From contig CAZYQW010000029.1 of the NCBI GenBank assembly GCA_964649825.1, positions 69,735 through 133,734 on the forward strand: a stretch of DNA of 64,000 bases, read 5' to 3'. The notes under the pieces are model-generated. The model ran no database searches and was not told where the DNA came from. It worked only from the letters and a program-made list of their open reading frames with translations. Below are positions 6,160 to 64,000 of the stretch, piece by piece (within the stretch, counting starts at the first letter, position 1; each line of letters begins with the position of its first letter). A program made the position numbers and the translations under genes. Source of the DNA: an uncultured Phycisphaeraceae bacterium. Its GTDB lineage: Bacteria > Planctomycetota > B15-G4 > JADJEK01.

Positions 6160-6170
6160 GATTCGCCCCC

Positions 6171-47203: not shown

Positions 47204-48562
47204 CTATCGATCCGGTCGGGACGAGCTGCCCCACTCCACGCGCCGGTCGAACACCAGCGTGCGATCGAGCTTCGCGTCGAACGACTCGATCACTGCTCGG
47301 AAGCTGGGTCGAGGACGGCCGCGGAACACCTCGTCGCCGTTCGCGCGCACGACGACGTCGAGCGACGGGTCGAACGTTCCCGGTCGCAGCCAGACGCTGA
47401 AGCTCTTCGGATCGGCACGCGCGATCGTCAGATCGAACTCGTTCCCGTCCCGCACGGCGACGACGCGCATCGCGTCCGTCGGGACATCGCAGTGGAGCCA
47501 GTAGAAGTCATGCTTCTGGTAGCGCGTCACCTTGTCCGCCGCGGTCGGCAGGGGAAACGGTTCGGTCGCGTACTCCCACACCAGCTTGGTGGGGAACGCG
47601 TTGCGCTTCCTCTGACCGATCCATTCGATCCCCTTCGTCGGTTCCCCCGGCGGGAAGGCGTGGGCGAGCCCGGGATAGGTCGCGAACTCGATCTCGACGT
47701 AGCCGCCGGGGTCCGCCTGCCGCAGCTCCTCGATCCGATCCCAGACGTAGAGGTACGTACCCGGCATGCAGTTCCGGTCGGCGAGACCGATGTAGTAGTA
47801 CATGGCGAGGTTGCGCACGTTGGGCACGAACCCGTGCTGCACCGACTTCACCTCTTCTTTGGTCGCGAGCTGGCTCTGCGGCTCGGCCATCACCACGCCG
47901 GCGCACGGAGACGCACCCGCGAGGAGGTCCGGGTGGCGCCCCGCCATGAACCAGGATCCGGTCCCGCCCATGCTGAACCCCATCGAGTAGACGCGGTCCG
48001 GGTCGATCTCCTGCTGCACCTTGGCAAGCTCGATCAACGAGAGGAGGAAACGCTCGCCGTGCACGGTGTTCCACGTATCGTGGACGAGCCGGATCCCCTG
48101 CGGATAGACGCCGACGCAGTTCTTCGCGTGCCAGCGCGTCGCCTCCGAAGCCGAACCGGCGCCCTCGCCGCCGCCGTGGAGGCCGAGCACGAGCCCTTTC
48201 CCCTTGCCCTTGCCCGACGCGATCCACGTCGCCTCGCCGTATGGAGTGTCGATCGCGTCGCCCTTCACCTTCGGGCCGTACCGCTTCGCCGCCTTGAAGA
48301 GCATCTCGACCACGGCGTCGAGCGAACCGTCCGGCAGCTCCCCCATCTGCGCGGCCTCCTCGAGCAGACGCTCGCGAGCCCCGTCCGCCCACGCCTCGAA
48401 GTAGTTCTTCGGACGCGCCTCGAACCAGCGCTTCCCGAACGACTCGATGGCTCGCTTGTCGAGCTTCTCGGCGCTCCGCGCAAGCGCAGCCGGTGCAAAC
48501 GGGGCGAGGATCACGACGAAGACGGTGAGCGGCCAAGCGGAGCGTCGGAGGGTGCTTCTCAT
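47204..48562 (-). CDS. Secreted alpha/beta-hydrolase (esterase/peptidase-like).
   Basis: The internal start MRSTLRRSAWPLTVFVVILAPFAPAALA is a signal peptide. GFSMGG is a GxSxG nucleophile elbow. The protein is 453 aa. Confidence 0.7.
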   Translation of the reverse strand: MRSTLRRSAWPLTVFVVILAPFAPAALARSAEKLDKRAIESFGKRWFEARPKNYFEAWADGARERLLEEAAQMGELPDGSLDAVVEMLFKAAKRYGPKVKGDAIDTPYGEATWIASGKGKGKGLVLGLHGGGEGAGSASEATRWHAKNCVGVYPQGIRLVHDTWNTVHGERFLLSLIELAKVQQEIDPDRVYSMGFSMGGTGSWFMAGRHPDLLAGASPCAGVVMAEPQSQLATKEEVKSVQHGFVPNVRNLAMYYYIGLADRNCMPGTYLYVWDRIEELRQADPGGYVEIEFATYPGLAHAFPPGEPTKGIEWIGQRKRNAFPTKLVWEYATEPFPLPTAADKVTRYQKHDFYWLHCDVPTDAMRVVAVRDGNEFDLTIARADPKSFSVWLRPGTFDPSLDVVVRANGDEVFRGRPRPSFRAVIESFDAKLDRTLVFDRRVEWGSSSRPDR

Positions 48563-48719
48563 GCGAGCGATTCTAAGTCGACCCCACTTCGAGAACCCCC
48601 ATGTCATCGGCGGCCGCGCGGGCCGGCGCCGTGGTTTGCTACGCTGGCCACCCGCGAAAACCCCGCCGGCGAAGCGCCGCTCGCCTTCGCGAGGCGGCGA
48701 ACTCCCTGGTGAACGTCCA

Positions 48720-50033
48720 GTGATCCATCCCTCTCTCGCATGGCTCGTGTGCAGCGTCGTCACCTTGAATGAAGGCGACGGCGATCCCGTGGTCTGGCTC
48801 TCCGAGCACGCCGGCGCGATCCGCACGATCGACCCGAGCGATGACGACTTCTCGGACCTCGAGTGCATCGCGGAGGCGATCGGAGACGCGCGCATCGTCT
48901 GGCTCGGCGAGCCGTCGCACGGCGACGGCGCCGCCTTCCGGGCGAAGGACCGCCTCGTTCGATTCCTCCACCGCCGTCACGGCTTCTCCACGCTGCTCTG
49001 GGAGTCGGGGTTCTTCGACTGCGCGGTGATGCAGGAGAAGCTGCACGAGGAGGGGCGCACGGACGCCGCGGCGAGCTGGGGCGTCTTCTCGATCTGGGGA
49101 GCGAGCCACCAGACGCTCCCCGTGTTCCAGTACGCGCGATCGACCTACGGCTCGGAGGATCCGCTCGTGATGGCCGGCATCGACTGCCAGTTCTCCGGGC
49201 GAGGGTCGGAGGGGATCAAGGACTTCGTCCTGCGCTTCTTCGACGAGGCGGGGAAGGACACGCTCTCCGCGGAGCTTCGCGCCGGCCTCGAGCGCGCGAA
49301 CCGGCATCTGTTCTTGTCGCCGTTCTTTCCGGCCGAGTCGCAGCTCGAGAAGGCGACGGCGGTGCTCGATGAGATCGCGGAAGGGACGAAGGACCCCGAT
49401 TCGCCGCTCACCAAGGTCCACTCCGAGCGTGAGCTCTCGTTCCTGCGGCAGACCCTGAAGTGCTACGCCGCTCAGCTCACGCTGAGGCTGCGCCTGCGCG
49501 ACGAGGCGACGCGCGCGACCGCGAGCAACCTGCGCGAGCGCATGATGGCCGAGAACCTGCTTTGGCATCTCGAGCACGCGAAGCCGGACGCGCGCTTCAT
49601 CGTGTGGGGCGCGGGCATCCACGGCGCAACGAACCTCGCCGAGGTCGAGCCGATCGACGAAGCGACGTCGTTCGCCGGGTTCGAGCCCGCCGGCAACATC
49701 CTGCGCGAACGGTTCGGCGACCGCTACTACTCGATCCTCTTCACCGCCCACCACGGCCACGCCGCCGTCGTCATGGCCGAGGCGAAGCCGATTCCGAACG
49801 CGCCCGAAGGTTCGTTCGAGACACTCTGCCGAAGCACCGGGAACGCGTTCACGTTCGTGGACCTCCGAGCCGCACGGCGGGAGGGTGGCGAGTGGCTCCG
49901 GGAACCGCGAGTGGCCAGACCACTCGGCTACGTCGACGTGACCGCCGCGTGGCCGCGCATCTGCGACGCGTTGTTCGTCATCGAGGAGATGACGCCGAGC
50001 ACGTTGCCGCCGGATGATGCGGCGGGGGAATGA
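48720..50033 (+). CDS. Erythromycin-esterase-family (Ere-like) protein.
   Basis: IVWLGEPSHGDG and RERMMAENLLWHLE resemble the Ere family. A GTG start is predicted at 48720. The protein is about 437 aa. Confidence 0.6.
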   Translation: MIHPSLAWLVCSVVTLNEGDGDPVVWLSEHAGAIRTIDPSDDDFSDLECIAEAIGDARIVWLGEPSHGDGAAFRAKDRLVRFLHRRHGFSTLLWESGFFDCAVMQEKLHEEGRTDAAASWGVFSIWGASHQTLPVFQYARSTYGSEDPLVMAGIDCQFSGRGSEGIKDFVLRFFDEAGKDTLSAELRAGLERANRHLFLSPFFPAESQLEKATAVLDEIAEGTKDPDSPLTKVHSERELSFLRQTLKCYAAQLTLRLRLRDEATRATASNLRERMMAENLLWHLEHAKPDARFIVWGAGIHGATNLAEVEPIDEATSFAGFEPAGNILRERFGDRYYSILFTAHHGHAAVVMAEAKPIPNAPEGSFETLCRSTGNAFTFVDLRAARREGGEWLREPRVARPLGYVDVTAAWPRICDALFVIEEMTPSTLPPDDAAGE

Positions 50034-50097: not shown

Positions 50098-50880
50098 TCA
50101 ATCACTCGGCAACAGTCGCAGCATCCGCTGCTCCACCAACACCCGGAAGTGACTCGCCATGCTCAAGGCGAGCGGGCGGTCGCGGACCAGCACCCCCACC
50201 TCGATGTTCCGATCGAACGCGGCCTCGGTGAGGTTCGCAGAGGTCACGAAGACTGCCTCGTCGTCGGCCACGACCGCCTTGGCGTGGAGGACGCCGGAGG
50301 GGCGCTCGGGGTCGAGGGCGCGCGGGTCGTAGAAGACCGTGGGCCGCGCCTGGCCGGGCCAATCCTCCTTCCAGAGACGATCGGCGAAGCTCCGCACGAG
50401 CTGGTCGGCGGGCGCGGGATCGCCGCGCTTGCGCTGGATGTTCAGCAGGAGGGTCACGCGGAGGCCGGGGCACGCGTCCATGCGGCGGGCGAGGAGTTGG
50501 AAGGCCCGGGGGCCGTCGAAGTAGGCGTACGTGCTGATCCAAAGCGACCGGGTGGCCCCCGCGAGGAGCTGGTCGAACGCGTCGCGGGTCCGGCGGACGT
50601 GGAGGCCGGGGACCTCGGGGCCGGACCAGACCAGGTCCGGCCGGATCTGCTTCGCGGTGACCGCTTCCACGGTCCGGAGCCAGGCGGCAGCGCCGCGCCC
50701 GGACACGCCGATGCGATCCAGGTCGCGAAGGCCGGTGGCGATCGCCTCGATGCCGTCCTCCAGGCCCACGGTGGCGCGCAGCGACGCGGCGGCGTAGGGC
50801 GGACCCAAGAGCCCGCTGTCGAGGGCCGCGGCGAGGCGCTGGCGCTGGTGGGATGGCAGGTCGAGGAGGGGCTCGATCAT
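50098..50880 (-). CDS. drmC: Phospholipase-D-family nuclease, DISARM DrmC-like.
   Basis: The HKD motif is HAKAVVADDEAVFVTSANLT. The 260-aa protein overlaps the drmB stop by 4 nt. Confidence 0.8.
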   Translation of the reverse strand: MIEPLLDLPSHQRQRLAAALDSGLLGPPYAAASLRATVGLEDGIEAIATGLRDLDRIGVSGRGAAAWLRTVEAVTAKQIRPDLVWSGPEVPGLHVRRTRDAFDQLLAGATRSLWISTYAYFDGPRAFQLLARRMDACPGLRVTLLLNIQRKRGDPAPADQLVRSFADRLWKEDWPGQARPTVFYDPRALDPERPSGVLHAKAVVADDEAVFVTSANLTEAAFDRNIEVGVLVRDRPLALSMASHFRVLVEQRMLRLLPSD

Positions 50881-52679
50881 TCCACGAGCCGGAAGAAGGC
50901 CGCGTCGGGCTCACCGAGAACAGGCACGACGAGGGCGCGGTCGAGGTAGTCGTTGCGCATCTCGCATGAGGTCTCGGCGACCAGGGTGCAGCCGTGGCAA
51001 GCGGCGCCGTGCAGGAAGCGCTTCTCCAGGCTCGAGGCCGGGGAGTGCTGGGCGCACACCGGGTCGTTGGAGCAGAGCGCCGCCATGCGGAGCGCGTTCG
51101 CGAGGTGATCTTCGATGTGGCGGCCCTGCTGGACGAGTCCGCCGAGCGTCCCCTCCGCGTCGGGGGTACCGGTGTACAGGAGCACGCCGTAGCGCTCACC
51201 GTCGGGGTCGGAGTACACACGCTCGCGGATGGAGCTCGCCGGGTAGCCACAGCGCATCGCGAGCGACTGGATGAGGAGATGGGACAGGGTGTGGAGGAGG
51301 ACGTAGGGCCCCCCGGGAAACGACCGCTTGCCCCGGCCTCTCCCATCGTCCTGCCACCGCTTGTACCCCGCGGCCAGGTCGTCGACGCGGGCCTTCACAA
51401 CGGGCCGCGCGAGCCACGCCGCGATCATCTCGGCGCGCAGATGAAGAAACACACCCTCCCCGCGGTTCTCGACCGCCGGGAACCAGGTGGGCTCCTCGTC
51501 GAGCTCGGCCCGCACGACGTCGGTGTCGTACTCGCCGTTGATGTCGGGCGTGACGGCCTCGAACCGCGTGAATCCAACCAGGGCGAGGACCTCGCGGAGG
51601 CGGTGGAGCTGGACGACGCTCTGGACGCCCGCGAAGCGATCCGACTTGTGCCAGACCGATTCGGGCAGCCGGCGGGCGTGGAAGTTGAGGTCGATGGGGA
51701 CGTCATCCCCGAAGCCCTCGAGCGCGGTGAGCAGCGCGTCCAACTCCACCTGCTTGACCGGCCGTTCCTCTACCACTCCCGCCTTCATCTCGCTGATGAT
51801 CTGCAGGACCTCGCGATCTCCGTATGGCGCGAGCTTCTCGGCGACGCGGGGCTTCCTCTTCACGGTCGCCAGGTCGCCCGCGTCCTCGACGATCTGCAGG
51901 TCGTCCCAGAGCTCGGTGAACACGGCGCGCGCCTTCGCGCCCTGGTCCGGCAGCGACAGCACGCTCACGACCTGGGGGAAGTATGCGTTGGCGGCGGTCC
52001 GGATGAGAAGCCGGCTCGGCAGGGAGCACTCCTCGCTCGCACCGCGCCCCAGCCACGGCATCGCCCCGCTGCATGTCCCCAGCGCTTCGCTCTCGGAGGC
52101 CTCGTAGAGGCTTCGCGGCGCCACCTCTTTGCACTCGCAGCGGATCGAGAGGTCCGCGAGATCGCCGGTCGTCCCCGTCTCGTCGAGCCAGAGCTGCAGG
52201 CGACATGTCGAGTCGGGTCCGTGAAGGAAGCGGTGCCATTGGATGTCATCGACGTGGCCACGCGGGCACGCGCGGACGAACCGCGTGGCCACGACCCGGA
52301 GATTCTCGAATCGCCCGTGGTCGAGCAGCTTGCGATGGACGAGCCGCCGCGACCGCGCGCTCCGGTCGCCCTCCGGCGGGGGCTCCTGGACCACGTACCA
52401 TTCGGGGAAGCGATACGCGCTGATGCCTCTTCGCCGGTGATCCGACCAGTCGTCCGATTCGATCGGCGGCGCGAACATTCGCGGATCGTCCACGTCCGTC
52501 ATCATCTGGAGCTTGCGCTCGAGCCGGGGCTCGACGACGGGCTCGAGTTCGCTGGTCGGCCCCCACGTCCGGAGACCGCCGAGGATCGCGGAGTCCTTCG
52601 GCAAATCGATCAACGCCCCAGGCCCGTAGGTCAGGATCACCTGGCTGCGCCGGAGCTGTCCGTGCGCTTTTCGTCTCAT
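50877..52679 (-). CDS. drmB: DUF1998-domain protein, DISARM DrmB-like.
   Basis: The 600-aa protein carries the C-terminal Cys motif typical of DUF1998/MrfB (SNDPVCAQH...HGAACHGCTLVAETSCEMRN). It overlaps the drmA stop by 4 nt. Confidence 0.8.
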   Translation of the reverse strand: MRRKAHGQLRRSQVILTYGPGALIDLPKDSAILGGLRTWGPTSELEPVVEPRLERKLQMMTDVDDPRMFAPPIESDDWSDHRRRGISAYRFPEWYVVQEPPPEGDRSARSRRLVHRKLLDHGRFENLRVVATRFVRACPRGHVDDIQWHRFLHGPDSTCRLQLWLDETGTTGDLADLSIRCECKEVAPRSLYEASESEALGTCSGAMPWLGRGASEECSLPSRLLIRTAANAYFPQVVSVLSLPDQGAKARAVFTELWDDLQIVEDAGDLATVKRKPRVAEKLAPYGDREVLQIISEMKAGVVEERPVKQVELDALLTALEGFGDDVPIDLNFHARRLPESVWHKSDRFAGVQSVVQLHRLREVLALVGFTRFEAVTPDINGEYDTDVVRAELDEEPTWFPAVENRGEGVFLHLRAEMIAAWLARPVVKARVDDLAAGYKRWQDDGRGRGKRSFPGGPYVLLHTLSHLLIQSLAMRCGYPASSIRERVYSDPDGERYGVLLYTGTPDAEGTLGGLVQQGRHIEDHLANALRMAALCSNDPVCAQHSPASSLEKRFLHGAACHGCTLVAETSCEMRNDYLDRALVVPVLGEPDAAFFRLVE

Positions 52680-55600
52680 GCCGAGTCTCCCGCCTCCGCC
52701 CCGTTGAGCTCCCTCAGGAACAGGTTCACCTCGGGCTCTACGTCGCGAAGCGACCGGTTCGCGCGGAACTTCCGGTGGTCCTCGGACTTGTCGGTGTCCA
52801 GCATTTCCCGAAGCAGAGGCCGCGGCCCGCGCACTTCGTACTTCTGGTACTGCATCCGGGCACCGACCTCACGCGACTCCGCTACAACTCGCGCCCAGGA
52901 ATCGAGGAGGTCCGTGACGCGCTGTTGTACGCTCAGCGCCCGCTCCGCCCGCTCCTGCTCGTCCATGCGCGGCTGCCCGGCGACACGGCGCAGGAAGGTG
53001 TCTCGCAACTCCGACTCGAGCCCGGCGCGGACATCGTCGATCCCTCCGACCGCTTCGGCGGGCGTCAGCTCCCGGCGCGCGTGGCGGGCGAGCGCCACCA
53101 ACGCCCCGGCGAAGCCCCGATCGAGGGCCCGCGCCGAGAACGGGGTGACGCTGGCCGGCTCCACCGCGCGATAGAACGTCTCGTGGTAGTGTCGAAAGCG
53201 CTCGTAGTGCGACCGGTCGCGCGGCTTGTGCATGTTGAGCAGCGTCACCACGAGGCCTGGCCGCTGGTCGTCGCGACCGACGCGGCTGGTCGCCTGGATG
53301 TACTCCGCGTGCGTCTTGGGCTGGCCGAGCACGACCATCAGCCCCAGCCGGGGGATGTCGAGGCCGACCGAGATCATGTTCGTGGCGATCGCGAAGTCGA
53401 CCCGCCGCTCTTCGTGGAACTCGCAGCTCAGGCGCTGCTTCGCTTCGGAGACCCCGCTGGTGGGGACGCGCGAGGTCAACTCCATGACCTCGGAGACTCG
53501 CTTGCGATCCTGGAATAGCCCTCGGTCCTCCCCCGCGCGCCGGCGGTTGCCGTAGCCCTTCAGGGTGTTCTGGACCTCCTCCTCGAGGATGCGGCGGCAG
53601 CCGCCGAGCTCGCGTAGGCTGTTGAAGTACCCGAGCACCGTCATGTACGGATCGGCGGGGTTCTTCTCGTTGCGGTGGCCGCCCGCGTCGCGGTACGCCC
53701 GCTCCGCCGCACCCATCAGGGCCAGCCAAACGCGGCGGAGGATCACCTTCGGATTGCGACCCTGCGAGGCCACGCCGAGGTACAGGCGGGCGGCTTTCCG
53801 CTCGACGCCCACCTCCGCCGCCGCCTGCGCGTCGGATGGGACGACCCGAGCGAAGAACGAGTCCCTTCGGTCGGGCCCGGGTGGCGGGAAGACCATGGTC
53901 TGGGGACGCCCGAAGACGGCCTGGATCTGCTCTGCGGCCTGGCGGACGGTGGCCGTCGACGCCACGATCTTCGGCTTGATCGCCTTGCCATCGACCTCGC
54001 GCACGATGAGGGCCTCGATCACCGTCTCGTACAGGCCGGCCATCGTGCCGAGCGGCCCCGAGATGAGGTGCAGCTCGTCCTGGATGATCAGGTCGGGCGG
54101 CGGCAGCGGGGCAGGGAGCCTGGAACCCTGGCCGGGCTCGGCATTGCCGTAGAAGCCGTGCTTGTCGTGCCGCTCGGCACCGCCGAGAAGCGCACCCGAC
54201 GGGCCGACCCAGGGCAGCGACGCGAACTTGTCCACGGTGGCGATGAGGAATGCCGGCAGCCGCCGGTAGATCGGCTCATCGACGGCGAGGATGGGGAGCG
54301 GGCGCTCGCGGGAGAAGTCGCATTCGAAGTTGACGCACACGATGCGCAGCTCGCGCGGCCGGTCGGCGTCCGGCTGCAAGTCGAACGAGTCCGGCTCGAA
54401 CCTGGTGCCGCACCACGGGCAGGTCTCGATGGGGATCGGGGACGGGTTCGCGTGCGGGTCGCGCTTGTAGTCGCGCACCTTGATCCGGGCGGTGTCCGAG
54501 ACCTTGTCGCCCTTGTGACCCATCCGGTTGGGCGTCGCCGCCTTGCCCACCCACAGCCCGATCTCGAAGGGCCACGTCCCGTAGCGCCCGGGATCCGCGC
54601 TCCGCTCGAGTTCCAGCGCGCACACCAGCCCCGCAGCCCGGCCGAGCTGATCGAGCGTGAGGAGGCGGAGGGTGTAGCGCATGAGGACGCTCACGCCCGC
54701 GCTCTGGAGCCCCGCGTTCCGCAGCCGGCGCAGGACCATCGTGTAGGCGGCGAGTCCGAGGTACGCCTCGGTCTTGCCGCCGCCGGTCGGGAAGAACAGC
54801 AGGTCGACCGTGTCGCGGTGTTTGCTCGGGTCGGTCGGATCCGCGATGCCGGACACGTTGAGGAGCACGAAGGCGAGCTGGAACGCGCGCCAGGCGGGTG
54901 CGTCGTCCCGCGACCGCCGCTGGAGAGCGCGGGCCACGGCGCGGTTCGCGACCCGAAACGCGTCCAAGGCGCTCGGGTCGGCGCGCAGGGTCTCGATGCC
55001 CTGGTCGATGCGGTCGGCGGCGGCGCGCGCGAGAACGAGGAGCCCCTCCACGGTCTCTCGCCGGGAATCGCCGAGCCTCCCCAGCACGCCCCGCTGCGCC
55101 GCGATCCAGGCGCGGTAGTGCACCACCAGCGGCCGAAGCGCCTGCGCTGCCGCCTCACCGTCGGCCAGGGCCCCGAGCTCGAGCATCCCGAGCGTCGCCC
55201 CTTCGATCTTCGATGTCTCGGTCCGCTCCACCTCGGCGTTCGGCACCCATGCGGTGCGCAGCTCGCGGCAGCGGCCATCCACCACCGACCACTCCGCGGA
55301 CACGCCGTGCCCCGCCGCGTACTCCGGCGCGTCGGCGTAGTGGACGTCGGCGACGCGCTCGTCCCAGTCGCGCGCCCGCGAGCCACGCGGATCCGGCCGG
55401 GGCACGAACGACTCCTCGCAGCGAACCCTGAGGCTCGCCTGGAACGCGTAGGCGCGGTCGGGGTTGTCGGTGTCGGGCGCGCGCCGGTTGATCAGGAAGA
55501 CCGAGATCGAGCGCGTTCCCGGGGGAATCTCGTTCGCGAACTCCCGCGCGTCGACGGCGCGATCGACGACGTGGAGCTGGAGGCCGCCGGAGCTCGGGAC

Positions 55601-56137
55601 ATCCAGGACGCACGGCTCGCGGCTCCCGCTGCCAAGGCGGACCCGGACGGGCTCCTCGCGGGCGTCCCGCTGCCACACGGACAGCGGCTTCCCGTCCTTG
55701 TCGGCCATCTCGCCGCGGTCGTAGTCCCCCCACCCGACGACGACGTCCAGGGCGGAGCACGCCGCCGGGACGAGGAAGCTCAAGCCCATGGACGACGGGA
55801 AGTAGCTCTTCTTCGCCGCGCGGCGTTCGTCCGCGCTCTCCTCCTCCAGACCGGCGTGCTCGGGCACGACGTCGAGGTCGTCGTCCTCATCCTGGTCGCC
55901 GGCCAGCTCGGGCGGCGTTCCCGTGGGGATGAGGAAACCCGTCAGGTACCAGTTGGACGGCCGCTCCCAGCCGCGCAGGCGCTCCTCCGCGTACGCATGA
56001 CCGGCCCAGGGACCCACCAGGTCGAGCTCGAGAGCTTCGACGAGGCGCGCTCGGATCGCCTCGGAGTCGACCGCGGTCGAGACCTCCCCGCCGTGCCCGT
56101 CCGTCACCGCATCGCTCCGTTCATCGGCACTCATCAT
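52676..56137 (-). CDS. drmA: Large SF2 helicase, DISARM DrmA-like.
   Basis: Walker A is FFPTGGGKTEAYL. DELH reads IIQDELHLISGP and motif VI reads QATSRVGR. The start ATGATG at 56137 overlaps the last 17 nt of darG. The track's longer ORF start at 56233 is less likely. Confidence 0.8.
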   Translation of the reverse strand: MMSADERSDAVTDGHGGEVSTAVDSEAIRARLVEALELDLVGPWAGHAYAEERLRGWERPSNWYLTGFLIPTGTPPELAGDQDEDDDLDVVPEHAGLEEESADERRAAKKSYFPSSMGLSFLVPAACSALDVVVGWGDYDRGEMADKDGKPLSVWQRDAREEPVRVRLGSGSREPCVLDVPSSGGLQLHVVDRAVDAREFANEIPPGTRSISVFLINRRAPDTDNPDRAYAFQASLRVRCEESFVPRPDPRGSRARDWDERVADVHYADAPEYAAGHGVSAEWSVVDGRCRELRTAWVPNAEVERTETSKIEGATLGMLELGALADGEAAAQALRPLVVHYRAWIAAQRGVLGRLGDSRRETVEGLLVLARAAADRIDQGIETLRADPSALDAFRVANRAVARALQRRSRDDAPAWRAFQLAFVLLNVSGIADPTDPSKHRDTVDLLFFPTGGGKTEAYLGLAAYTMVLRRLRNAGLQSAGVSVLMRYTLRLLTLDQLGRAAGLVCALELERSADPGRYGTWPFEIGLWVGKAATPNRMGHKGDKVSDTARIKVRDYKRDPHANPSPIPIETCPWCGTRFEPDSFDLQPDADRPRELRIVCVNFECDFSRERPLPILAVDEPIYRRLPAFLIATVDKFASLPWVGPSGALLGGAERHDKHGFYGNAEPGQGSRLPAPLPPPDLIIQDELHLISGPLGTMAGLYETVIEALIVREVDGKAIKPKIVASTATVRQAAEQIQAVFGRPQTMVFPPPGPDRRDSFFARVVPSDAQAAAEVGVERKAARLYLGVASQGRNPKVILRRVWLALMGAAERAYRDAGGHRNEKNPADPYMTVLGYFNSLRELGGCRRILEEEVQNTLKGYGNRRRAGEDRGLFQDRKRVSEVMELTSRVPTSGVSEAKQRLSCEFHEERRVDFAIATNMISVGLDIPRLGLMVVLGQPKTHAEYIQATSRVGRDDQRPGLVVTLLNMHKPRDRSHYERFRHYHETFYRAVEPASVTPFSARALDRGFAGALVALARHARRELTPAEAVGGIDDVRAGLESELRDTFLRRVAGQPRMDEQERAERALSVQQRVTDLLDSWARVVAESREVGARMQYQKYEVRGPRPLLREMLDTDKSEDHRKFRANRSLRDVEPEVNLFLRELNGAEAGDSA

Positions 56138-57191
56138 CCCCGCGCCCACCCGGAGCACCGAGCCAGCCTCGGCGCGCGAGGGTCTCGCGAGCGATGCCGA
56201 TCTGACGGGGAGTGAAGCGCTTCTTGCGCTCATCCCAGGCGTGCGTGCACGCGATCAACTCGCTCTCGGAGGTCACCCCATCGCGGACCACCACCCAGTG
56301 CACGGTCGCGAGCAACTCGAGGCCCGAGGGCGTCTCGAAACCCTCGACCAGCGCCGCGACCCGATCGAACCGGGCCTGCGTCTCCGGTGCAGCCGCCAAC
56401 ACCGCGCGAGCCTGTTCCACGGCCCCCGGCATGAGCTCCAGCACCTTGTCCGGAGCGTCGCCGCCGTCGCCGTAACCGGTCACGTAGTGGCCCTCGATCT
56501 CCCGCAGCACGTGGCGGAGGTTCTCGACGTATGGGCCGTAGTAACCCTTCTTCACGCGCAGACGGAGGTTCTCGCCCGCCTCCTGCATGAAGTACATGAG
56601 CTTGTGGATCTCCAGGAGCGACGCGAAGGGATCGAGCAGCCCAGCGGTGTAGCGGTCGATCAGGCCGATGAGCGCGGCCCGCCCCGCGGTCATCGGCGGC
56701 GCCGCGGCGCCACGGTTCGGCGTCGCCCGCGGTCGCGCCGGCGACGGCTCGAAGATCGTCACGCGCACCTCGGCCAGGTCGCGCAGCGCCTGCTCGATGC
56801 GCGCCCGCACCTGGCCCCACTCCAGGCCACCCAGACCCGCGCCGAGGGGAGGAATGGCCACCGAGCGGATCCCTCGCTGCTCGATCTCGGCGACCAGCGC
56901 CGCCAGGCCCGCGTCGATGTCCTCCATGCGCGACTTGCCGCGCCAGTGCCGCTTGGTCGGGAAGTTGATGATGAAGCGCGGGGGCGTCAGGCGCCCGGTC
57001 TCGAAGACGAACATGCGGCCCGGCTGGACCTCGCCGCGGCGGCACGCGGCGGCGTAGGCGCGGAAGTTGTCGGGCCAGGCCTTCTTGAACTGCAGCGCGA
57101 TGCCACGCCCCATGAACCCGACGCAGTTGACGGTGTTCACGAGCGCTTCCGCGTCCTCCGCGAGGAGATCGCCGGTCTTGAACTCGATCAT
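56121..57191 (-). CDS. darG: DarG antitoxin (macro-domain ADP-ribosyl hydrolase plus C-terminal DarT-binding domain).
   Basis: The internal start is MIEFKTGDLLAEDAEALVNTVNCVGFMGRGIALQFKKAWPDNFRAY, a macro domain with GIA and LGAGLGG elements. It lies 14 nt downstream of darT. The protein is 356 aa. Confidence 0.8.
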   Translation of the reverse strand: MIEFKTGDLLAEDAEALVNTVNCVGFMGRGIALQFKKAWPDNFRAYAAACRRGEVQPGRMFVFETGRLTPPRFIINFPTKRHWRGKSRMEDIDAGLAALVAEIEQRGIRSVAIPPLGAGLGGLEWGQVRARIEQALRDLAEVRVTIFEPSPARPRATPNRGAAAPPMTAGRAALIGLIDRYTAGLLDPFASLLEIHKLMYFMQEAGENLRLRVKKGYYGPYVENLRHVLREIEGHYVTGYGDGGDAPDKVLELMPGAVEQARAVLAAAPETQARFDRVAALVEGFETPSGLELLATVHWVVVRDGVTSESELIACTHAWDERKKRFTPRQIGIARETLARRGWLGAPGGRGDDECR

Positions 57192-57205
57192 CGCGGCTCC
57201 TCGGT

Positions 57206-57856
57206 TCAGAAGTACCAGGACCTCTTGACCGCCGTCGCCGTCGAACGGCTCGCTTGGGCCAGAGCGCTCTCGACTCGATGTCGAATGCCGTCGGATGGTA
57301 CTCCGATGCCTTCGACGAGATCCAACGGGAATCGCCCTTCGAGCAGGAACTCGGCCTGCTTGCCCTCCTTGATGTCTGGTGCTCGAAAGTCGGCCGCCGC
57401 GATCGCCGCCCAGTTCAGTTCGTCGAGATCGCTCCAGCGATTCCGGAACTCCGTGGCGTAGGCACCGGCGTTCGCGAGCGAGAAGCACCAGCGCACGCGG
57501 TGCTCCTCGGCCCAGCGTACGACTTGGGCCAGGTCCGCGTGCAGATGGAGAATCGACTCCTGCCCGCCGCGATAGGTCAGCTCGGCGTGGTTCCCCCGGT
57601 GCAGGAGGTAGAGCATGATCGACCGGGGACAGAAGTAGAACGGGACGTAGTCGCCGACCGTCGTTCCGTCATGACAAGGCACGTGGATCCTGTGCAGGCG
57701 GCGCTGCTTGATGTCCGTCATGCCGATCGGCTGCGCCGGACCGCTGCGCGCGATCATCGCGCGATCGGACAGGAGCGCGCCCTCCGCGAGGATCGCGGGC
57801 AGGTTGTCCACGTGAGTGATGTGGTACACCTTCGGCCGATCGGGCGGTGCGCTCAA
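57206..57856 (-). CDS. darT: DarT toxin (DUF4433 ssDNA thymidine ADP-ribosyltransferase).
   Basis: KVYHITHVDNLPAILAEGALLSD matches the DarT N-terminal NAD-binding motif. A TTG start at 57856 follows GGGGAGG plus 8 nt, and an alternative GTG lies at 57829. The TTG overlaps the TGA of the upstream MTase by 2 nt. Confidence 0.75.
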   Translation of the reverse strand: MSAPPDRPKVYHITHVDNLPAILAEGALLSDRAMIARSGPAQPIGMTDIKQRRLHRIHVPCHDGTTVGDYVPFYFCPRSIMLYLLHRGNHAELTYRGGQESILHLHADLAQVVRWAEEHRVRWCFSLANAGAYATEFRNRWSDLDELNWAAIAAADFRAPDIKEGKQAEFLLEGRFPLDLVEGIGVPSDGIRHRVESALAQASRSTATAVKRSWYF

Positions 57857-60800
57857 TCGAACAGCCTCCCCTGCGGTGACGCGGCCGCGCCCTTCTTCGA
57901 GCGCCCCTGACCTGCGCCGGCGCGCGCCTCCTCCTTGGCACGCTCGGCGTTCAGCTCGAGGAGCCGGGCGAGGACCTCGTCGCGGACGTCGTCGGGCCAG
58001 CGGTAGCGCCAGGGCTTCTTGCGGCTGCCCCACTCCTCCTCGTCGACCTCGTAGTCGAGGAGGAACTCGCACTCGGTCGGGATGTCGTCCCAGCCGTACG
58101 CGCGCAGGACCGCGCGATCCATGGCGGCGTGGAGCTCGCGGAGCCGGAGGATGTCCGGGTCGCGCTCCTCCGGGTCGTGGAAGCGGTTGTAGGTCTTCGT
58201 AAGGCCAGCGTCGTTGCGGACCATGAGAGCGGCGCGGAAGTCGTGGTACTCCTGGCCGGCGGCCTCGAGGTCAGGGTGTTCGGTCCAGTTGGCCGGGAAG
58301 GGGTAGGTCTGAAAGACAGCCGTCGGGTTGTATGTAAGGTCATCCGCCACACCACGGGTCGTCCCGAAGAATGAACTCCACACCTCGTGCGCGCGACACT
58401 GCAATGCCGCAATCGACGAGTGGCTTTCGAATGGAAACACGATGAGCTTGTGAGAGAAGACCTGACCCGAGGGTACACAACCAATGACGTGGTGAGCGAC
58501 AGCTGCAGCTCCAGTGACAAGCACCCGGTCCAGCCCGGCGATGGCGGCGTAGAGCTCCGGCCGAAGTCTCTCGAACTGCCACCAGCGCGCTGTTGAGTGG
58601 CTGCCGCGCGTTCCGTGCACGCGCTTCTCGACGATCGCCATCAGCTCCGGCCACTGCCGCCGGCATTCCTCCTCGGACCGCTCGCCGAAGTTGATGACGT
58701 ACCGGTGGTGCGCATGCGTCGGGCTCGAGTTCACCTCCTCGCCACCGATGTAGGGCAAGATCACGTCCCGGTTGCGCGGGTTCTTGGCCAGCAGACGCTC
58801 CATGTCGGCGAGACTGGAAGCGACGCCCTTCGTGTCCGTGTCGTCGAAGGTGAAACCCATGCCAAGGACGATGCTTCCCTGGAAGCTCCGCCCCGCATTC
58901 GACGACAGGCGAGCGGGATCCTCGTGGCCGCCGCGATGGAACAGAAACGCGGTGATCTGCTCGACCTCCCGCCCGTCGAGATGCCTGGATCCGGCCCACT
59001 CGTCGCGCGCGACATGCACCACGCTGACGACGACCGCGGCCTGCCCCGGCCACCTGACCCGGCGATCGGCGCGGTAGACCTGGCCTGCGTGCCGGCAGAT
59101 CCAGCGCAGCCCGGTCGAACGCGTGTCGCCCTGCCTGATGGTGTTGGTGGCGATCAGGCCGAACGCGCCACCGCGCCGCAGCAGATCGAACGCGCGCCGG
59201 AAGAAGTGCGCAACCAGGTCGGCGTTGCCGTGGCTCTCGGCGTGAAGAGCCTTCAGCCACTCCGGGTATCCGGGCACGTTGGAGGCCGCGACGGTGTTCT
59301 TGTAGGCGAACGGAGGATTGCCGACGATCGCGTCGAACCCCGGATTCTCCCGTCCGGACACCTCCGGGAACTCCACCTCCCAGTGGAACGGCGCGAGCGG
59401 CGGATCCTCGGTCCGACGTTCCAGGAGGCGGCCCGTATGGTCCTCCGCTGAGCCATCGCTGATCGCGTGCACGAAGTCCCGTCGCCTGTCCTCGCGCGCC
59501 TTCGGCTTGTCCCCCGCGAAGAACGCGTCGACGAGCAAATCGCCGTACAGCCGCACCCGTGCGAGCTCGGCCTGGGCCTCGTCCCAGATGTCGCGGAGCA
59601 CGAAGTCCGACACGCCCTCGCCGGCCTCGCGGATCTCGCGGCGCAACGCCGCCGCCCGCTCCAGGTGTCCGCGGATCCGCTCACGCAGCCTGCTCTCGAA
59701 CTCGAGGCTGTCGTCCCAGTGGAAGATCTCGATCTGCCGTCGCGACATCCCGACCAGCGAGTCGCCGTGCCGCAGCGCGTGATCCACGAACGTGAGCGGG
59801 TGGTCCTTCGCCAGCGTCGCGAGCCAGAGCGAGACCTTCGCCAGGTCGACCGCGACGGGGTTGCGGTCGACGCCGTAGAGGCACCGCTGCGCGACCAGAC
59901 GCATCGCATGGACCCGTTCGTCCTCGTCGGCGGGAATCGGCGGGGTCTGGCGATAGAAGTTCCAGCTCTCGACCAGAGCCTCGCCGAGCTGGCGGCACGC
60001 CTCGACCAGGAACGCGCCCGACCCCATCGCCGGGTCGCACACCTTCAGGTCGAGGATCTGCCCGGGGCGTGGGGGCCGGTCGTCGCTGCCACGCAGCCGC
60101 TGGAGAATCGGCTCCAGGGTCCGGCGGACGATCGGCTCGGTCAACGACCGCGGCGTGTAGTGCGAGCCGGAGCGCCGGCGAGCCTCGCTCGGCTGGAGGA
60201 CCATCGCTCCGCTCGGCACCAGGTCCGGCGTCGCCGCGGGGTCGATTACCGGCTGCAGCGCGGCGTGGAGCTCCTCCAGCGTCGACGCGTCCTTCACTGC
60301 CTGCTTGACCCGATCGGTGAGCTTGCGATCGGCGCGGTCCCGGATCCACTTGTCGCGCTTGGCCGCGTCCACGTTCAGGAGGGCGTCGAGGTCGATCGCG
60401 GTCGGCGCGCCGTGCTTCTTGTGGGCCTTCACCGCCACCGCGCGCCCGCTGGCGGTCTCCATGCGGAAGCCCATCATGGTCTCGTAGACCGAGCCGATCT
60501 GCTCGACGTCGAGCGCGCGGTAGGAGAGCCGCTCGCCGTCGAGGACCAGCAGTTTCTCCAGGGCGCGGTGAATGGTGCCGTCGGGCACGAGCGGCACGTC
60601 GACGCCCTCGTGGATCTGCCGCGCGCTACCCGTGGTACGCCCTTCGAGGAACGGGAAGCGGTCGGGGTCGAAGAGCACACCGTGGCGAGCGGGCAGGCGC
60701 ATGCCGCCGGCCTCGGCGCCGTCATGGATCATCCGGAAGAGCACCAGGAGCTGCGCCCACGCGCCGAATCGCTGGTCCATCGTGTCGGGGTAGCGCGACG

Positions 60801-61785
60801 CGTCGGAGCGCAGGCGCTCGTAGAGGCCCGCGAGCGAGTAGTGCCGGAGGAACGCCTCGTCCTTCGGCAGCATGTCGCGCTCCTCGGCGTAGAGCAGGAA
60901 CACGAGGCGCAGGATGACGGTGAGGAGCCCGCGGTAGACCTCGTCCGGATGCTCGCGGAGCACGTCGGCGAGAAGCTCGCCCCGGGTGGCGTCCTGCGCG
61001 GCCTGGAGGCCCCGGAGCAGTTCGTACAGCGCCTGCAGCACCTGCTCGGCGAGGCGCTCGCTGACCTCGTTCTGGTACTTACGGCTATCCTCGAGCAGGG
61101 CGGTGAGCCGCTTGTCCTTCGGCAGGGACAGCAGCCGCGGCTCGCTCAGCAACAGCCGCAGCGCGGCGCAGATCGGCCGGCCAGCGGTCTGGACCAGCTC
61201 CCCCGCGCGGAAGTCGAGCCAGCCCGAGGTCTCCCTCCGCGGCGCCGACACGAGCCGCACCGCGTGCCCGTTGAACAGGAGGCCGGCGAGCACGCCGTGC
61301 TTGCGCAGCATCCGCTCCATGCGGCTGTGCGGCGACGCATCGAGCCGCGACCCCGGCACGGGGTCGTCGAACCCCTGGTCGGGATCGATCACCGAGACCA
61401 GGAGCTGCCACGCGGGTTGGCCCGCGGCTGGTAACAGCTCACGGACCGCGAAGTCGGGGGCGAGGGTCTCCTCGAAGTCCTCGAGGTACACGAGGAGCTC
61501 GGGCGGCACTGGGGCCTCGGCCGTACCCGCGTAGCCCTTGGGCGAGAAGCTCCAGCCGAGGACGTGCCGCACGAAGCGTTCGAACTCCACGAACAACCGC
61601 GGAGTGCCGCGGTCGCCGTCCCAGCCGGGGACGCAGTCGCGGACTCGCCGCTGGGTCTTCATGTCGTTGCGGTCGAGAATGGCTCCGGCGCGGACCAACG
61701 CGGTCGGCGACACGACGAGGCCGGTCGGCTGGACGAAACCGAGCCACTCGACGTGGGCGAGGACGTTCGGATCGGGCCGGGCCAT
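57853..61785 (-). CDS. drmMI: N6-adenine DNA methyltransferase of 1,310 aa (Eco57I/PglX-like), DISARM DrmMI-like.
   Basis: The true start is the internal MARPDPNVLAHVEW at 61785. The first ~380 codons of the track ORF are GC-rich junk that overlaps the SNF2 gene. Motif I is VCDPAMGSGAFLVEA and motif IV is IVGNPPFAYK. The TGATG arrangement overlaps the SNF2 stop. Confidence 0.8.
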   Translation of the reverse strand: MARPDPNVLAHVEWLGFVQPTGLVVSPTALVRAGAILDRNDMKTQRRVRDCVPGWDGDRGTPRLFVEFERFVRHVLGWSFSPKGYAGTAEAPVPPELLVYLEDFEETLAPDFAVRELLPAAGQPAWQLLVSVIDPDQGFDDPVPGSRLDASPHSRMERMLRKHGVLAGLLFNGHAVRLVSAPRRETSGWLDFRAGELVQTAGRPICAALRLLLSEPRLLSLPKDKRLTALLEDSRKYQNEVSERLAEQVLQALYELLRGLQAAQDATRGELLADVLREHPDEVYRGLLTVILRLVFLLYAEERDMLPKDEAFLRHYSLAGLYERLRSDASRYPDTMDQRFGAWAQLLVLFRMIHDGAEAGGMRLPARHGVLFDPDRFPFLEGRTTGSARQIHEGVDVPLVPDGTIHRALEKLLVLDGERLSYRALDVEQIGSVYETMMGFRMETASGRAVAVKAHKKHGAPTAIDLDALLNVDAAKRDKWIRDRADRKLTDRVKQAVKDASTLEELHAALQPVIDPAATPDLVPSGAMVLQPSEARRRSGSHYTPRSLTEPIVRRTLEPILQRLRGSDDRPPRPGQILDLKVCDPAMGSGAFLVEACRQLGEALVESWNFYRQTPPIPADEDERVHAMRLVAQRCLYGVDRNPVAVDLAKVSLWLATLAKDHPLTFVDHALRHGDSLVGMSRRQIEIFHWDDSLEFESRLRERIRGHLERAAALRREIREAGEGVSDFVLRDIWDEAQAELARVRLYGDLLVDAFFAGDKPKAREDRRRDFVHAISDGSAEDHTGRLLERRTEDPPLAPFHWEVEFPEVSGRENPGFDAIVGNPPFAYKNTVAASNVPGYPEWLKALHAESHGNADLVAHFFRRAFDLLRRGGAFGLIATNTIRQGDTRSTGLRWICRHAGQVYRADRRVRWPGQAAVVVSVVHVARDEWAGSRHLDGREVEQITAFLFHRGGHEDPARLSSNAGRSFQGSIVLGMGFTFDDTDTKGVASSLADMERLLAKNPRNRDVILPYIGGEEVNSSPTHAHHRYVINFGERSEEECRRQWPELMAIVEKRVHGTRGSHSTARWWQFERLRPELYAAIAGLDRVLVTGAAAVAHHVIGCVPSGQVFSHKLIVFPFESHSSIAALQCRAHEVWSSFFGTTRGVADDLTYNPTAVFQTYPFPANWTEHPDLEAAGQEYHDFRAALMVRNDAGLTKTYNRFHDPEERDPDILRLRELHAAMDRAVLRAYGWDDIPTECEFLLDYEVDEEEWGSRKKPWRYRWPDDVRDEVLARLLELNAERAKEEARAGAGQGRSKKGAAASPQGRLFD

Positions 61786-64000
61786 CAATTCGACTCCGGC
61801 CAGAGGTAGACCAGACCCACCGGCTCCACGCGGGTCGCGCGGACCTCGTAGAACTCCCGAATCCGATCGGGCTCGCCGGCCAGGTCGCGGTCGAACTGCT
61901 CGAGCCGCACCTTCCACCAACGCGCGTCCGCCTCGAGTTGGCGCCGGGCGTCCGCGAGCTGGCGCTTGCGCTCCTCCAGCTCCTGCTTCGCCGCTTCGCG
62001 CTCGGCTTGCTCCTCGGCGAAGAGCGACGCCTGGCCGAGCTTGCGCTCCTCCTCCGCAATCCGCCGCTCCTCCTCGTGCTCCTTGCGGCCGTACTTGCCG
62101 AGCTCCTCCTCGACCCGCTTGCGCTGGCGCTCCAGCGTTTCCCGCAGGTCGCGGGCCTCGCGCTCGCCCCGCGTCCGCAGTCGGTCCGCCGCCGTGGCCG
62201 CGACCTCGTCCGCCCGCGGCTGGAGCTGGGGCAGGAGTTCCTCGACGTCGCGGGTCGCGGCCTCCAGGAGCCGCGCCTGGATGGTCTTGTTTGGCGCACG
62301 ACCCGCGGTGGCTCCGGCGAGGGCCACCTCGAGCAGCTCGAGCGTCTTCACCTCCGCGTCCCGTGCGTAGGCCTTGAGCGGTCCGCCGCGCTTCGCCGGC
62401 TCGAGCCAGCGCGCGGTGACCGGGATGACCTCCTCGTGGAGCCGCTCCGCGCCCCGGCCGTAGAGCGAGAGTCGGCCGAGGAGGATGACGCGGGGGATGG
62501 AGTCGGTGGCCTGCGCAAGGCAGGCGCGCGACAGGTCGTGGTGGACGAAGCCCTGGGTGCGGAACCGGGCGAGCAGGCGCTGGGCGACCCGCTGCTCGAG
62601 GTGGAGGTGCACCGTGTCCTCGGTGAGGATGCCTTCGTCCTCGAACACGATCGGACGAATCGGCGACTCGCGTCGCCAGTCGGCGAGCTTCTGTCCGGTG
62701 CGGCGCGGTGCGCGCAAGGTGTCGACGGTTGCGGCCCAGCTCGCGTCGAGGCCGACCTTGCGGTCGAGCGGCGGGAACGACCAGACCGGCCGGCCGTCCG
62801 CGTCCTTCTCCTCCACCAGGGGCTTCGCGCCGAGCAGCTCCAGCGAGCACGAGAGGGCGTTGCGAAACGGCGCGGCCTCGAAGCCCACCCACCGGCGCGA
62901 GTTCTGCAACAGCCCGCGGCACCGCTCGATCTGCGCCGCGAGGTCGTCCTGCCGATCGCGGGCGCCCTCCAGCTCCTCCTCGGCGATGCGCTTCTGCTCG
63001 GCGTCGAGATCGGCCGCCTCGATCGCCGCCGCGAGACGCTCGGCGTCGCGGTGGCGGATGCCGCCCCGCATCAGCCGTTCGACGTCGTCATCGATCACCT
63101 TGGAGAGGCTGCCGAGCTCCGCCTTGATGGTCTCGGTCTTGCGCACCAGCACCTCGAGGACGTGGTCCTCGATCCGCTGCGGAAGCACGAAGTAGTGGCA
63201 GCGGACCTCGTCGGCGGGCTGCAGCTTGCGGTCGATGCGGCCGTTCCGCTGCTCGATGCGGCCGGGGTTCCAGGGCAGGTCGAAGTGGAACAGATCGGTG
63301 CAGTGGGCCTGGAAGTTGAGGCCCTCGCGGGCTGCGTCGGTGGCGAGGAGGATGCGCAGGGGTTCCTTCGACGGGTCGGCGTTGAAGCGGCGCTGGATCT
63401 CGCGCCGGTTCTTGCCGGCGGTGAGGCCATCGATGACCGCGATGCGCTCGTCGGCCAGTTCGGTCCCTTCGATGGCTTGCTCCAGCATCTGCTTGAGGTA
63501 GCGCTTGGTGCCCTCGCGGTTCTCGGTGAAGACCAGGACGCGCCGGTCGGTCCACGTCGCCGGCGCGCCGCGCGCCGCCTCGCCGAACGGCGGCAGGCCG
63601 GGACACTGCTGCTCGCGGATCCAGTCGATCAGCCGGCGGAGCTTGGCGTCGGGGACGTGGCGGGACTGGTCGGCGATCTGCTCCATCCGGTCGAGCAGCT
63701 CCTGCTCCGTCCTCCAGATCGCTTGCTCGCCCGGTCCACGCCGGGCGCCGCGCTCGGCCGCTGCCGTCACCGCCTCGACTTCGCTCGCGTCCTCCGCGTC
63801 GAGCTGCTCGGCGGTCCACTCGCTCCGTTCGTCGTCGGCGTCCGGTGCGTGGGTCAGGAGTTCGCCGCCGCCGTCGGTCGTCCCGCCCACTTCGTCAGCG
63901 AGCGCGGAGGTGGCGACAGAGTTCTGCCACTGCTTCTCCGCCGTCTTCCGGTGCACCTTGAGGGTGCGCCAGAAGGCCTCGATGGAGGAGAGCAGCCGTT
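61785..64000 (-). CDS. drmD: SNF2-family helicase (DISARM DrmD-like). The 5' end lies beyond the window.
   Basis: A helicase C-terminal domain is present (RVLVFTENREGTKRYL...ILLATDAAREGLNFQ...FDLPWNPGRIEQRNGRIDR). A long coiled-coil C-terminal tail follows. The minus-strand frame is open through position 64000, and the track's 'M' at 63956 is GTG. Confidence 0.75.
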   Translation of the reverse strand, partial: RLLSSIEAFWRTLKVHRKTAEKQWQNSVATSALADEVGGTTDGGGELLTHAPDADDERSEWTAEQLDAEDASEVEAVTAAAERGARRGPGEQAIWRTEQELLDRMEQIADQSRHVPDAKLRRLIDWIREQQCPGLPPFGEAARGAPATWTDRRVLVFTENREGTKRYLKQMLEQAIEGTELADERIAVIDGLTAGKNRREIQRRFNADPSKEPLRILLATDAAREGLNFQAHCTDLFHFDLPWNPGRIEQRNGRIDRKLQPADEVRCHYFVLPQRIEDHVLEVLVRKTETIKAELGSLSKVIDDDVERLMRGGIRHRDAERLAAAIEAADLDAEQKRIAEEELEGARDRQDDLAAQIERCRGLLQNSRRWVGFEAAPFRNALSCSLELLGAKPLVEEKDADGRPVWSFPPLDRKVGLDASWAATVDTLRAPRRTGQKLADWRRESPIRPIVFEDEGILTEDTVHLHLEQRVAQRLLARFRTQGFVHHDLSRACLAQATDSIPRVILLGRLSLYGRGAERLHEEVIPVTARWLEPAKRGGPLKAYARDAEVKTLELLEVALAGATAGRAPNKTIQARLLEAATRDVEELLPQLQPRADEVAATAADRLRTRGEREARDLRETLERQRKRVEEELGKYGRKEHEEERRIAEEERKLGQASLFAEEQAEREAAKQELEERKRQLADARRQLEADARWWKVRLEQFDRDLAGEPDRIREFYEVRATRVEPVGLVYLWPESN

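Follow-up and report, generated by a model that had tools for sequence, protein, structure and literature searches.

A predicted class 1 DISARM operon with a DarT/DarG pair between its methylase and helicase genes

Class 1 DISARM, reportedly defined by Ofir and colleagues in 2018 and represented by the system of Serratia sp. SCBI, is said to comprise drmD, drmMI, drmA, drmB and drmC. Here we describe a predicted operon of this class that also carries a DarT/DarG toxin-antitoxin pair. It is located on the minus strand at positions 50098-64000 of a 64,000-nt stretch of DNA (hereafter the window) from an uncultured Phycisphaeraceae bacterium (contig CAZYQW010000029.1, positions 69,735 to 133,734). 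It has been reported that DarTG pairs occur inside type I restriction-modification (RM) operons, and either crosstalk between methylation and ADP-ribosylation or stabilization of the locus was proposed for such embedded pairs (Jankevicius et al. 2016, PMC5179494). An island of enteropathogenic Escherichia coli (EPEC) contains DarTG2 between hsdS and hsdR in a unit of seven open reading frames (ORFs), the first of which is preceded by an active promoter under RptR repression, and the hsdS/hsdR position was regarded by its authors as a potential recombination hotspot for defense systems (PMC12255303, 2025). In addition, embedded genes were found to be frequent in DISARM, BREX, type I RM and Hma systems; known defense systems account for many of them, 96.7% share the orientation of their host system, and complementary action and co-regulation were suggested (Payne et al., bioRxiv 10.1101/2024.01.29.577857). 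The novelty implied by an initial annotation of the window does not hold in view of these three reports: the locus is an instance of a published nesting pattern and not a new kind of system. The present analysis adds a measurement of how strictly cargo is confined to drmMI|drmA, a catalog of that cargo, and a DarTG clade that appears to reside mainly in this slot. Neither DarTG by name nor a statement that cargo is restricted to drmMI|drmA was found in the searched parts of the preprint (main text and supplementary files), and a literature search for DarT together with DarG and drmA, or for DUF4433 together with DISARM, returned no paper naming the pairing.

We found seven consecutive ORFs on the minus strand, in the order drmD, drmMI, darT, darG, drmA, drmB and drmC, and comparison with PADLOC and Pfam models confirmed the prediction of a class 1 DISARM operon with an intact DarT/DarG pair between the methylase and helicase genes. 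The drmD gene (61785-63998 within the window, running past its end as feature 61785..64000) codes for a predicted SNF2-family helicase, which matched PADLOC model PDLC02621 (1.6e-136) over positions 406-1036 of 1040 and Pfam Helicase_C (7.5e-15). This protein is partial because the window ends within the gene: the C-terminal ~737 amino acids are inside, and ~370 N-terminal residues, including the N-terminal ATPase lobe, are beyond base 64000. The full-length homolog in contig L090 has 1107 amino acids, and DrmD at homologous loci is full length (1059-1121 amino acids) and has SNF2-rel_dom. The next gene, drmMI (57853-61785, 1310 amino acids), codes for a predicted N6-adenine DNA methyltransferase of the type IIG/MmeI-like kind, the modification module of the system. 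It matched PDLC02643 over its full length (E=0, 1294.8 bits) and, above the Pfam cut-offs, Eco57I (2.9e-20), MmeI_Mtase (1.2e-14) and N6_Mtase (1e-08), with an MmeI_TRD match (8.2e-05, 22.5 bits) under the 27-bit cut-off; its translation contains NPPF within GNPPFAYKN and also DPAMGSGAF. Downstream of the DarT/DarG pair, drmA (52676-56137, 1153 amino acids from an ATGATG start) codes for a predicted SF2 (YprA-like) helicase with GGGKT and DELH motifs that matched PDLC02575 (1.6e-275) and Pfam Helicase_C. It is directly followed by drmB (50877-52679, 600 amino acids), whose product, the predicted DUF1998/MZB zinc-binding partner of DrmA, matched PADLOC (3e-83) and Pfam MZB (DUF1998; 1.1e-09) and has a Cys cluster at the C-terminus. 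The last gene of the operon, drmC (50098-50880, 260 amino acids), codes for a predicted PLD-family nuclease (PADLOC, 4.7e-80; PLDc_2, 9.5e-14; PLDc, 2.1e-06), in which the HxK(x)4D motif reads HAKAVVAD.

The darT gene (57206-57856) has a TTG start and codes for a 216-amino acid protein, a predicted single-stranded DNA (ssDNA) ADP-ribosyltransferase toxin, which matched Pfam DarT (DUF4433) over its full length (8.5e-61) and PADLOC DarT (3.9e-64) and aligned from end to end with Thermus DarT 7omv (2e-30, phmmer). Residue E169, in KQAEFLL, aligned opposite the E160A substitution of the crystallized 7omv mutant; the catalytic motif was invariant in 8 relatives, and the YHITH and DYVPFYFCPRS motifs were also present. 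The darG gene (56121-57191) codes for a 356-amino acid predicted antitoxin, in which a macrodomain ADP-ribosylglycohydrolase at the N-terminus is joined to a DarT-binding domain at the C-terminus. It matched the PADLOC DarG model over positions 1-327 of 329 (3.5e-132) and Pfam Macro (2.1e-25), and its macrodomain was similar to those of T. aquaticus (5m31; 2e-53, phmmer) and M. tuberculosis (2.7e-51). The lysine equivalent to K80 is kept, NFPTKRHWR aligning with Taq NFPTKKHWR, and residues 167-337 aligned with the C-terminal DarT-binding domain of M. tuberculosis DarG (7yk3_B; 1.3e-26). The roles of the catalytic E160 of DarT and K80 of DarG are those described by Jankevicius et al. 2016 (PMC5179494). 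As judged from these alignments, the pair is complete and its predicted catalytic residues are intact. It would be of the DarTG2-like type, and thymidine modification would be expected, since the antitoxin is a macrodomain protein (the family split is summarized in PMC12255303) and the pair is similar to the Thermus and M. tuberculosis enzymes. No fusion, extra domain or unusual feature was seen in DarT or DarG relative to the Thermus and M. tuberculosis proteins. The initial annotation had proposed the order and identities of all seven contiguous genes, the class 1 assignment, the DarT/DarG pair and the incompleteness of drmD, and it had named the HMM families (DUF4433, Macro, DUF1998 and PLD) and the DarT catalytic residues as checks. 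All of these were borne out by the PADLOC and Pfam matches and by the position of E169. That annotation also offered, tentatively, a two-layer defense unit or an addiction module as the function of the arrangement; both ideas had been put forward by Jankevicius et al. 2016 (PMC5179494) for DarTG in type I RM operons.

The junctions are tight throughout, also in agreement with that annotation except for two details. The drmD stop and the drmMI start fall within TGATG, and drmMI and darT overlap at TTGA; by gene coordinates (57853-57856) this overlap is 4 nt, the 2 nt given earlier being a count of shared codon bases only. The 14-nt spacer between darT and darG carries a Shine-Dalgarno-like GAGGAG ~7 nt 5' of the darG ATG, and an ATGA overlap of 4 nt occurs at drmA/drmB and again at drmB/drmC. 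The start of drmA is ambiguous: the 17-nt overlap with darG noted before applies to the ATG at 56137, but a GTG at 56107 (13-nt spacer) and an ATG at 56233 (longer overlap) are further candidates, and the junction is tight under all three. The G+C content is ~70% throughout the window, and the 56-58 kb segment (0.69, versus 0.67-0.72 in adjoining 2-kb segments) shows no compositional contrast for darTG. Scans of 48-64 kb, a method that is weak at ~70% G+C, gave 0 promoter-like sites for sigma-70 and 6 intrinsic-terminator sites versus 5.2 expected, that is, nothing above chance. Because the junctions are tight and the terminator signals are not above chance, co-transcription of the seven genes is plausible.

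The explanation that we favor, and consider probable, is that two autonomous layers of immunity, restriction-like DISARM and abortive infection by DarTG, are expressed from this one operon. By analogy with the known families, DrmMI would methylate host adenines as a self mark, and DrmA and DrmB, together with DrmC and DrmD, would act on unmethylated incoming DNA. In the second layer, again from knowledge of the family, DarT would ADP-ribosylate thymidines in ssDNA once control by DarG is lost during infection, and replication of both phage and host would be blocked. Nesting of darTG in the operon may provide shared transcription and regulation as well as co-transfer of both layers, and the toxin-antitoxin pair would, as a side effect, penalize loss of the locus. 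The drmMI|drmA slot of this DISARM family is a general docking place for defense cargo with DarTG as one occupant among many, and type I RM and Hma-like operons have comparable slots in which the same DarTG family is found.

A chance neighborhood in a defense island, or a chimeric assembly, would be another account of the arrangement, and the adjoining 38-50 kb also holds PD-Lambda-2_C-like, MkoA-like and Cas4-like genes. However, darTG lies within the operon, held by overlapping codons, rather than beside it. An independent short-read assembly, the 5,744-nt Logan contig L081 (run SRR10083321), was 100% identical to positions 54767-60510 of the window, with the same drmMI-darT-darG-drmA order and the same 216-amino acid darT called, and the gene arrangement is therefore not an assembly accident. 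The same order was also found in at least 10 other contigs from different samples. As it recurs in independent assemblies, chance or artefact is extremely unlikely and is effectively refuted. Exact look-up of the window DrmMI found no record, and that of DarG found only this 5.7-kb contig.

To place the pair among related DISARM loci, we used a DrmA search over one genome per species, which gave 80 loci with 48-71% identity from Acidobacteriota, Planctomycetota, Gemmatimonadota, Cyanobacteria, Actinomycetota, Myxococcota, Gammaproteobacteria and other phyla. Insertions were defined as >300 nt at a junction, with correction for unaligned ends, and informative loci were counted for each junction. 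The drmMI|drmA junction had an insertion in 29 of 51 informative loci and was empty in the other 22, as compared with 3 of 31 for drmD|drmMI, 0 of 78 for drmA|drmB and 0 of 62 for drmB|drmC. This junction is a specific slot for varied defense cargo in this DISARM family. Defense genes dominated the cargo of the 80-locus set: GmrSD-like HEC-06/Orf5 (six loci), PDC-S28 (1e-239), Drt1a (DRT1; E=0), RT_UG5-nitrilase (UG5 reverse transcriptase) with PDC-S11, a dCTP deaminase (5.5e-164), AriA/AriB (PARIS; L042), a dGTPase-like HD protein, a SIR2/pAgo-associated-like protein, PDC-M11A, and a three-gene set coding for a C5 methylase, an HATPase kinase and a receiver protein. Most of it was on the operon strand, and a few loci (e.g., L033, L055 and L062) had opposite-strand ORFs. 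Since the cargo is mostly defense genes, DarTG in the window occupies a slot that commonly holds other defense modules. Neither DarT nor DarG was found among the 80 species-representative loci, including the 51 informative ones.

Two kinds of cargo had further features. In L017, L018 and L021, which are gammaproteobacterial metagenome-assembled genomes, the same 8-9 kb cargo (e.g., L017 3342-9050) is found between drmMI and drmA and codes for a C5 DNA methylase, a ~990-amino acid HATPase_c_3/HEF_HK/HATPase_c protein and a Response_reg_2 protein; the DrmA match in these loci begins only at residue ~140-155, so that the N-terminus differs. In L030 (7957-9300 and 9360-9929) and L044 (7630-8961 and 8918-9472), the slot holds an HD/HD_assoc_2 protein with a weak match to a dGTPase model, followed by a ~185-amino acid protein. 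The small protein of L030 resembles the DarT-binding domain of DarG (PADLOC DarG positions 163-326, 1.2e-16; 23% identity to the window DarG), and the two proteins may form an uncharacterized toxin-antitoxin-like module.

The pairing was recovered when DarG was used as the starting point. Protein searches with DarG returned thousands of relatives, and the genomic context was examined for ten of the closest (68-73% identity). Eight of these were inside DISARM, six complete and two decayed. The complete drmD-drmMI-darT-darG-drmA-drmB-drmC order was seen in P0001, P0009, P0021, P0033, P0035 and P0116, where the P0001 contig is cut upstream, with drmD outside and only the 3' end of drmMI inside. 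The decayed loci were P0014 (L085), where DarT and DrmA are truncated and a HigBA-like pair is present, and P0084 (L170), with fragments followed by drmB-drmC. The remaining two relatives were a stand-alone pair between insertion sequences (P0002) and a pair in a degenerate type I RM operon (P0047). A metagenome scan revealed embedded DarTG also in L090, where all seven genes are present, and in L087, whose contig breaks off within drmMI and so lacks drmD, and DarG followed by DrmA in L131.

In a neighbor-joining tree of DarG (no support values), the DISARM-embedded proteins clustered with the copy flanked by insertion sequences, and the L131 protein, which is of a separate lineage, was placed elsewhere. 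This tree and the contexts above point to a DarTG clade that resides mainly in the drmMI|drmA slot. Pairwise identities of DarG and DrmA varied in parallel among six embedded loci, with the window as an outlier in both, and the G+C content of these loci was 0.59-0.70; both observations fit the movement of the seven genes as one unit between hosts. In the corresponding DrmA tree (neighbor-joining, no support values), DarTG-bearing loci were interleaved with empty-slot and other-cargo loci, so the slot cargo appears to turn over. We rejected, as a full account, the idea that DISARM acquired DarTG only once, on the basis of the separate DarG lineage of L131 and the interleaved DrmA tree. Relatives of DarG at 62-68% identity were embedded in other systems, including type I RM operons with the order HsdM-HsdS-DarT-DarG-HsdR (L115 and L126) or HsdM-DarT-DarG-(unscanned ORF)-HsdR (L099 and L098) and a DUF499/DUF1156 (Hma-like) system (L153). 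These embedded pairs, together with the copy flanked by insertion sequences in L084, argue that DarTG is an autonomous module.

Several of these relatives deserve separate mention. In L153 (5219-13997), DarTG lies between DUF499 and DUF1156 proteins in a system that is Hma-like (helicase, methylase, ATPase) by appearance, and a DrmD/SNF2-like sequence was weakly matched by tblastn (33% identity) ~7 kb downstream; the ORF layout of L162 is similar, possibly reflecting the same Hma-like embedding. In L082 (1168-1788), the last ~35 residues of DarT are wholly divergent and end early in an otherwise complete DISARM-DarTG locus; a frameshift or a mistake in the assembly could account for this. In L088, whose DarTG pair is otherwise outside DISARM, a 99-amino acid ORF (1801-2100, plus strand) with 61% identity to the first ~75 residues of DrmA is directly upstream of darT (2097), and it may be a remnant from a time when the pair lay in DISARM, or a trace of recombination at the edge of the slot.

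The clustering of close DarG relatives in DISARM also bears on a different possibility, namely that DarTG is wired to DISARM and the seven genes form one integrated system like PrrC-EcoprrI, which we regard as quite unlikely. DarT could be a tripwire that responds when a phage inhibits or degrades DISARM, as in PrrC-EcoprrI or in the sensing of Ocr by PARIS, or it could act on ssDNA exposed by the DrmAB helicase. Besides the near confinement of the closest DarG relatives to DISARM (8 of 10 sampled) and the parallel divergence of DarG and DrmA, the overlapping start and stop codons of drmMI and darT and the adjacency or overlap of darG and drmA speak for such wiring. In L042 the slot holds PARIS, which senses anti-restriction proteins, and DarTG always lies between modification and restriction/helicase modules in both DISARM and type I RM (PMC12255303). 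However, the L084 pair belongs to the same DarG clade and stands alone, the unrelated second DarG lineage next to drmA in L131 is what interchangeable cargo would give, the DrmA tree interleaves loci with DarTG, other cargo and no cargo, and the DarT and DarG proteins have the ordinary make-up noted above. It is similarly improbable that the DISARM clade of DarTG is a guard, with DarT set free or supplied with ssDNA by DrmAB only if a phage blocks or evades the methylation-based layer, and that the methylase/motor boundary of DISARM, type I RM and Hma is a conserved docking point for back-up systems.

The decayed loci are relevant to a further explanation, that DarTG is kept as an addiction module since cells that lose the locus die, which would stabilize a costly 14-kb DISARM or its mobile carrier. 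DarTG is a proven toxin-antitoxin, and this idea has been raised for type I RM operons (PMC5179494). Intact darG persists in both decayed DISARM loci (P0014/L085 and P0084/L170), and a second pair, a HigB-like toxin with an HTH antitoxin, sits beside DarTG in the slot of L085. On the other hand, most slot cargo (GmrSD-like, DRT, dCTP deaminase, PDC-S28 and others) is not toxin-antitoxin, so the slot gathers defense genes in general. In L085 (9579-13341), a decaying architecture, DarG is intact but DarT is cut to 135 amino acids and DrmA to 353; addiction thus failed to prevent decay there, as the toxin itself is truncated. In addition, LeRoux and colleagues reportedly found in 2022 that DarTG alone protects E. 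coli from phage, which counts against the addiction explanation. We consider addiction unlikely as the main reason for the pairing, and the little direct anti-phage role for DarTG that it entails is doubtful.

Two autonomous layers expressed from one operon is the explanation that we retain, and several points weigh against it. Scans for promoters and terminators are of low power at ~70% G+C, and the 5' end of the operon and its promoter are outside the window. The DISARM-DarTG pairing is uncommon among species-representative DISARM loci, as 0 of 51 informative loci carry DarTG, and the occurrence of this DarG clade almost only in DISARM could mean more than passive co-carriage. If the explanation is correct, the locus would be a clean natural case of layered immunity in the form of one transferable operon. 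It also extends to DISARM the link already known between DarTG and type I RM operons. The slot and its DarTG clade also provide a defined place to mine for new defense genes and a tractable test of whether embedded modules guard their host system.

PD-Lambda-2-like, helicase-like and Cas4-like genes in the window suggest that the operon is part of a defense island spanning 38-64 kb. An erythromycin-esterase-like ORF (48447-50033, plus strand) is convergent with drmC and ends 64 nt away from it. At 43854-44921 (minus strand), a 355-amino acid protein matched Pfam Beta_protein (2.7e-50) and PADLOC PD-Lambda-2_C (1.1e-26); an ORF with no matches (44918-45637, minus strand) overlaps it upstream. 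A PD-Lambda-2-like system may thus have a part here, at a distance of ~5 kb from the DISARM operon. An SF1 helicase-like ORF (38317-40824, minus strand; AAA_11/AAA_12; PADLOC MkoA 3.1e-54, DpdJ 1.4e-35) overlaps in coordinates with an ORF call containing a Cas4-like PD-(D/E)XK domain (40017-41393, minus strand), and these gene boundaries are provisional. Farther away, an AcrB-type RND pump and its membrane-fusion partner (3013-7874, minus strand) suggest that the host is diderm, and the many high-G+C non-actinobacterial relatives of the operon would agree with this.

We compared the locus with known systems at four levels. Relative to class 1 DISARM, the window has all five families on one strand and in the usual order, with strong PADLOC matches and motifs, although DrmD is only partly inside the window; the identity of DrmA to any species-representative genome sampled does not exceed 71%, and the locus differs by the addition of darT and darG between drmMI and drmA. 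Relative to the DarTG pairs of T. aquaticus and M. tuberculosis (PDB 7omv, 5m31, 5m3i and 7yk3), the motifs and the catalytic Glu and Lys are kept and the toxin gene precedes the antitoxin gene on the same strand, whereas the genomic setting is different. The DarTG pairs in type I RM operons are also of the macrodomain type and lie in the same orientation between modification and motor/nuclease parts, and the EPEC island is likewise a seven-ORF unit. In contrast, the host system in the window is DISARM, its DarG is closest to the clade found mostly in DISARM, and, as compared with the RptR-regulated type I RM island, the 5' end of the operon and any regulator are outside the window. With regard to guilt-by-embedding as formulated by Payne et al., darTG lies between host genes on the same strand in an otherwise complete host system, the same position holds varied cargo or none in related loci (29/51 versus 22/51), and the PDC-S28, PDC-S11 and PDC-M11A models match cargo in the drmMI|drmA slot.

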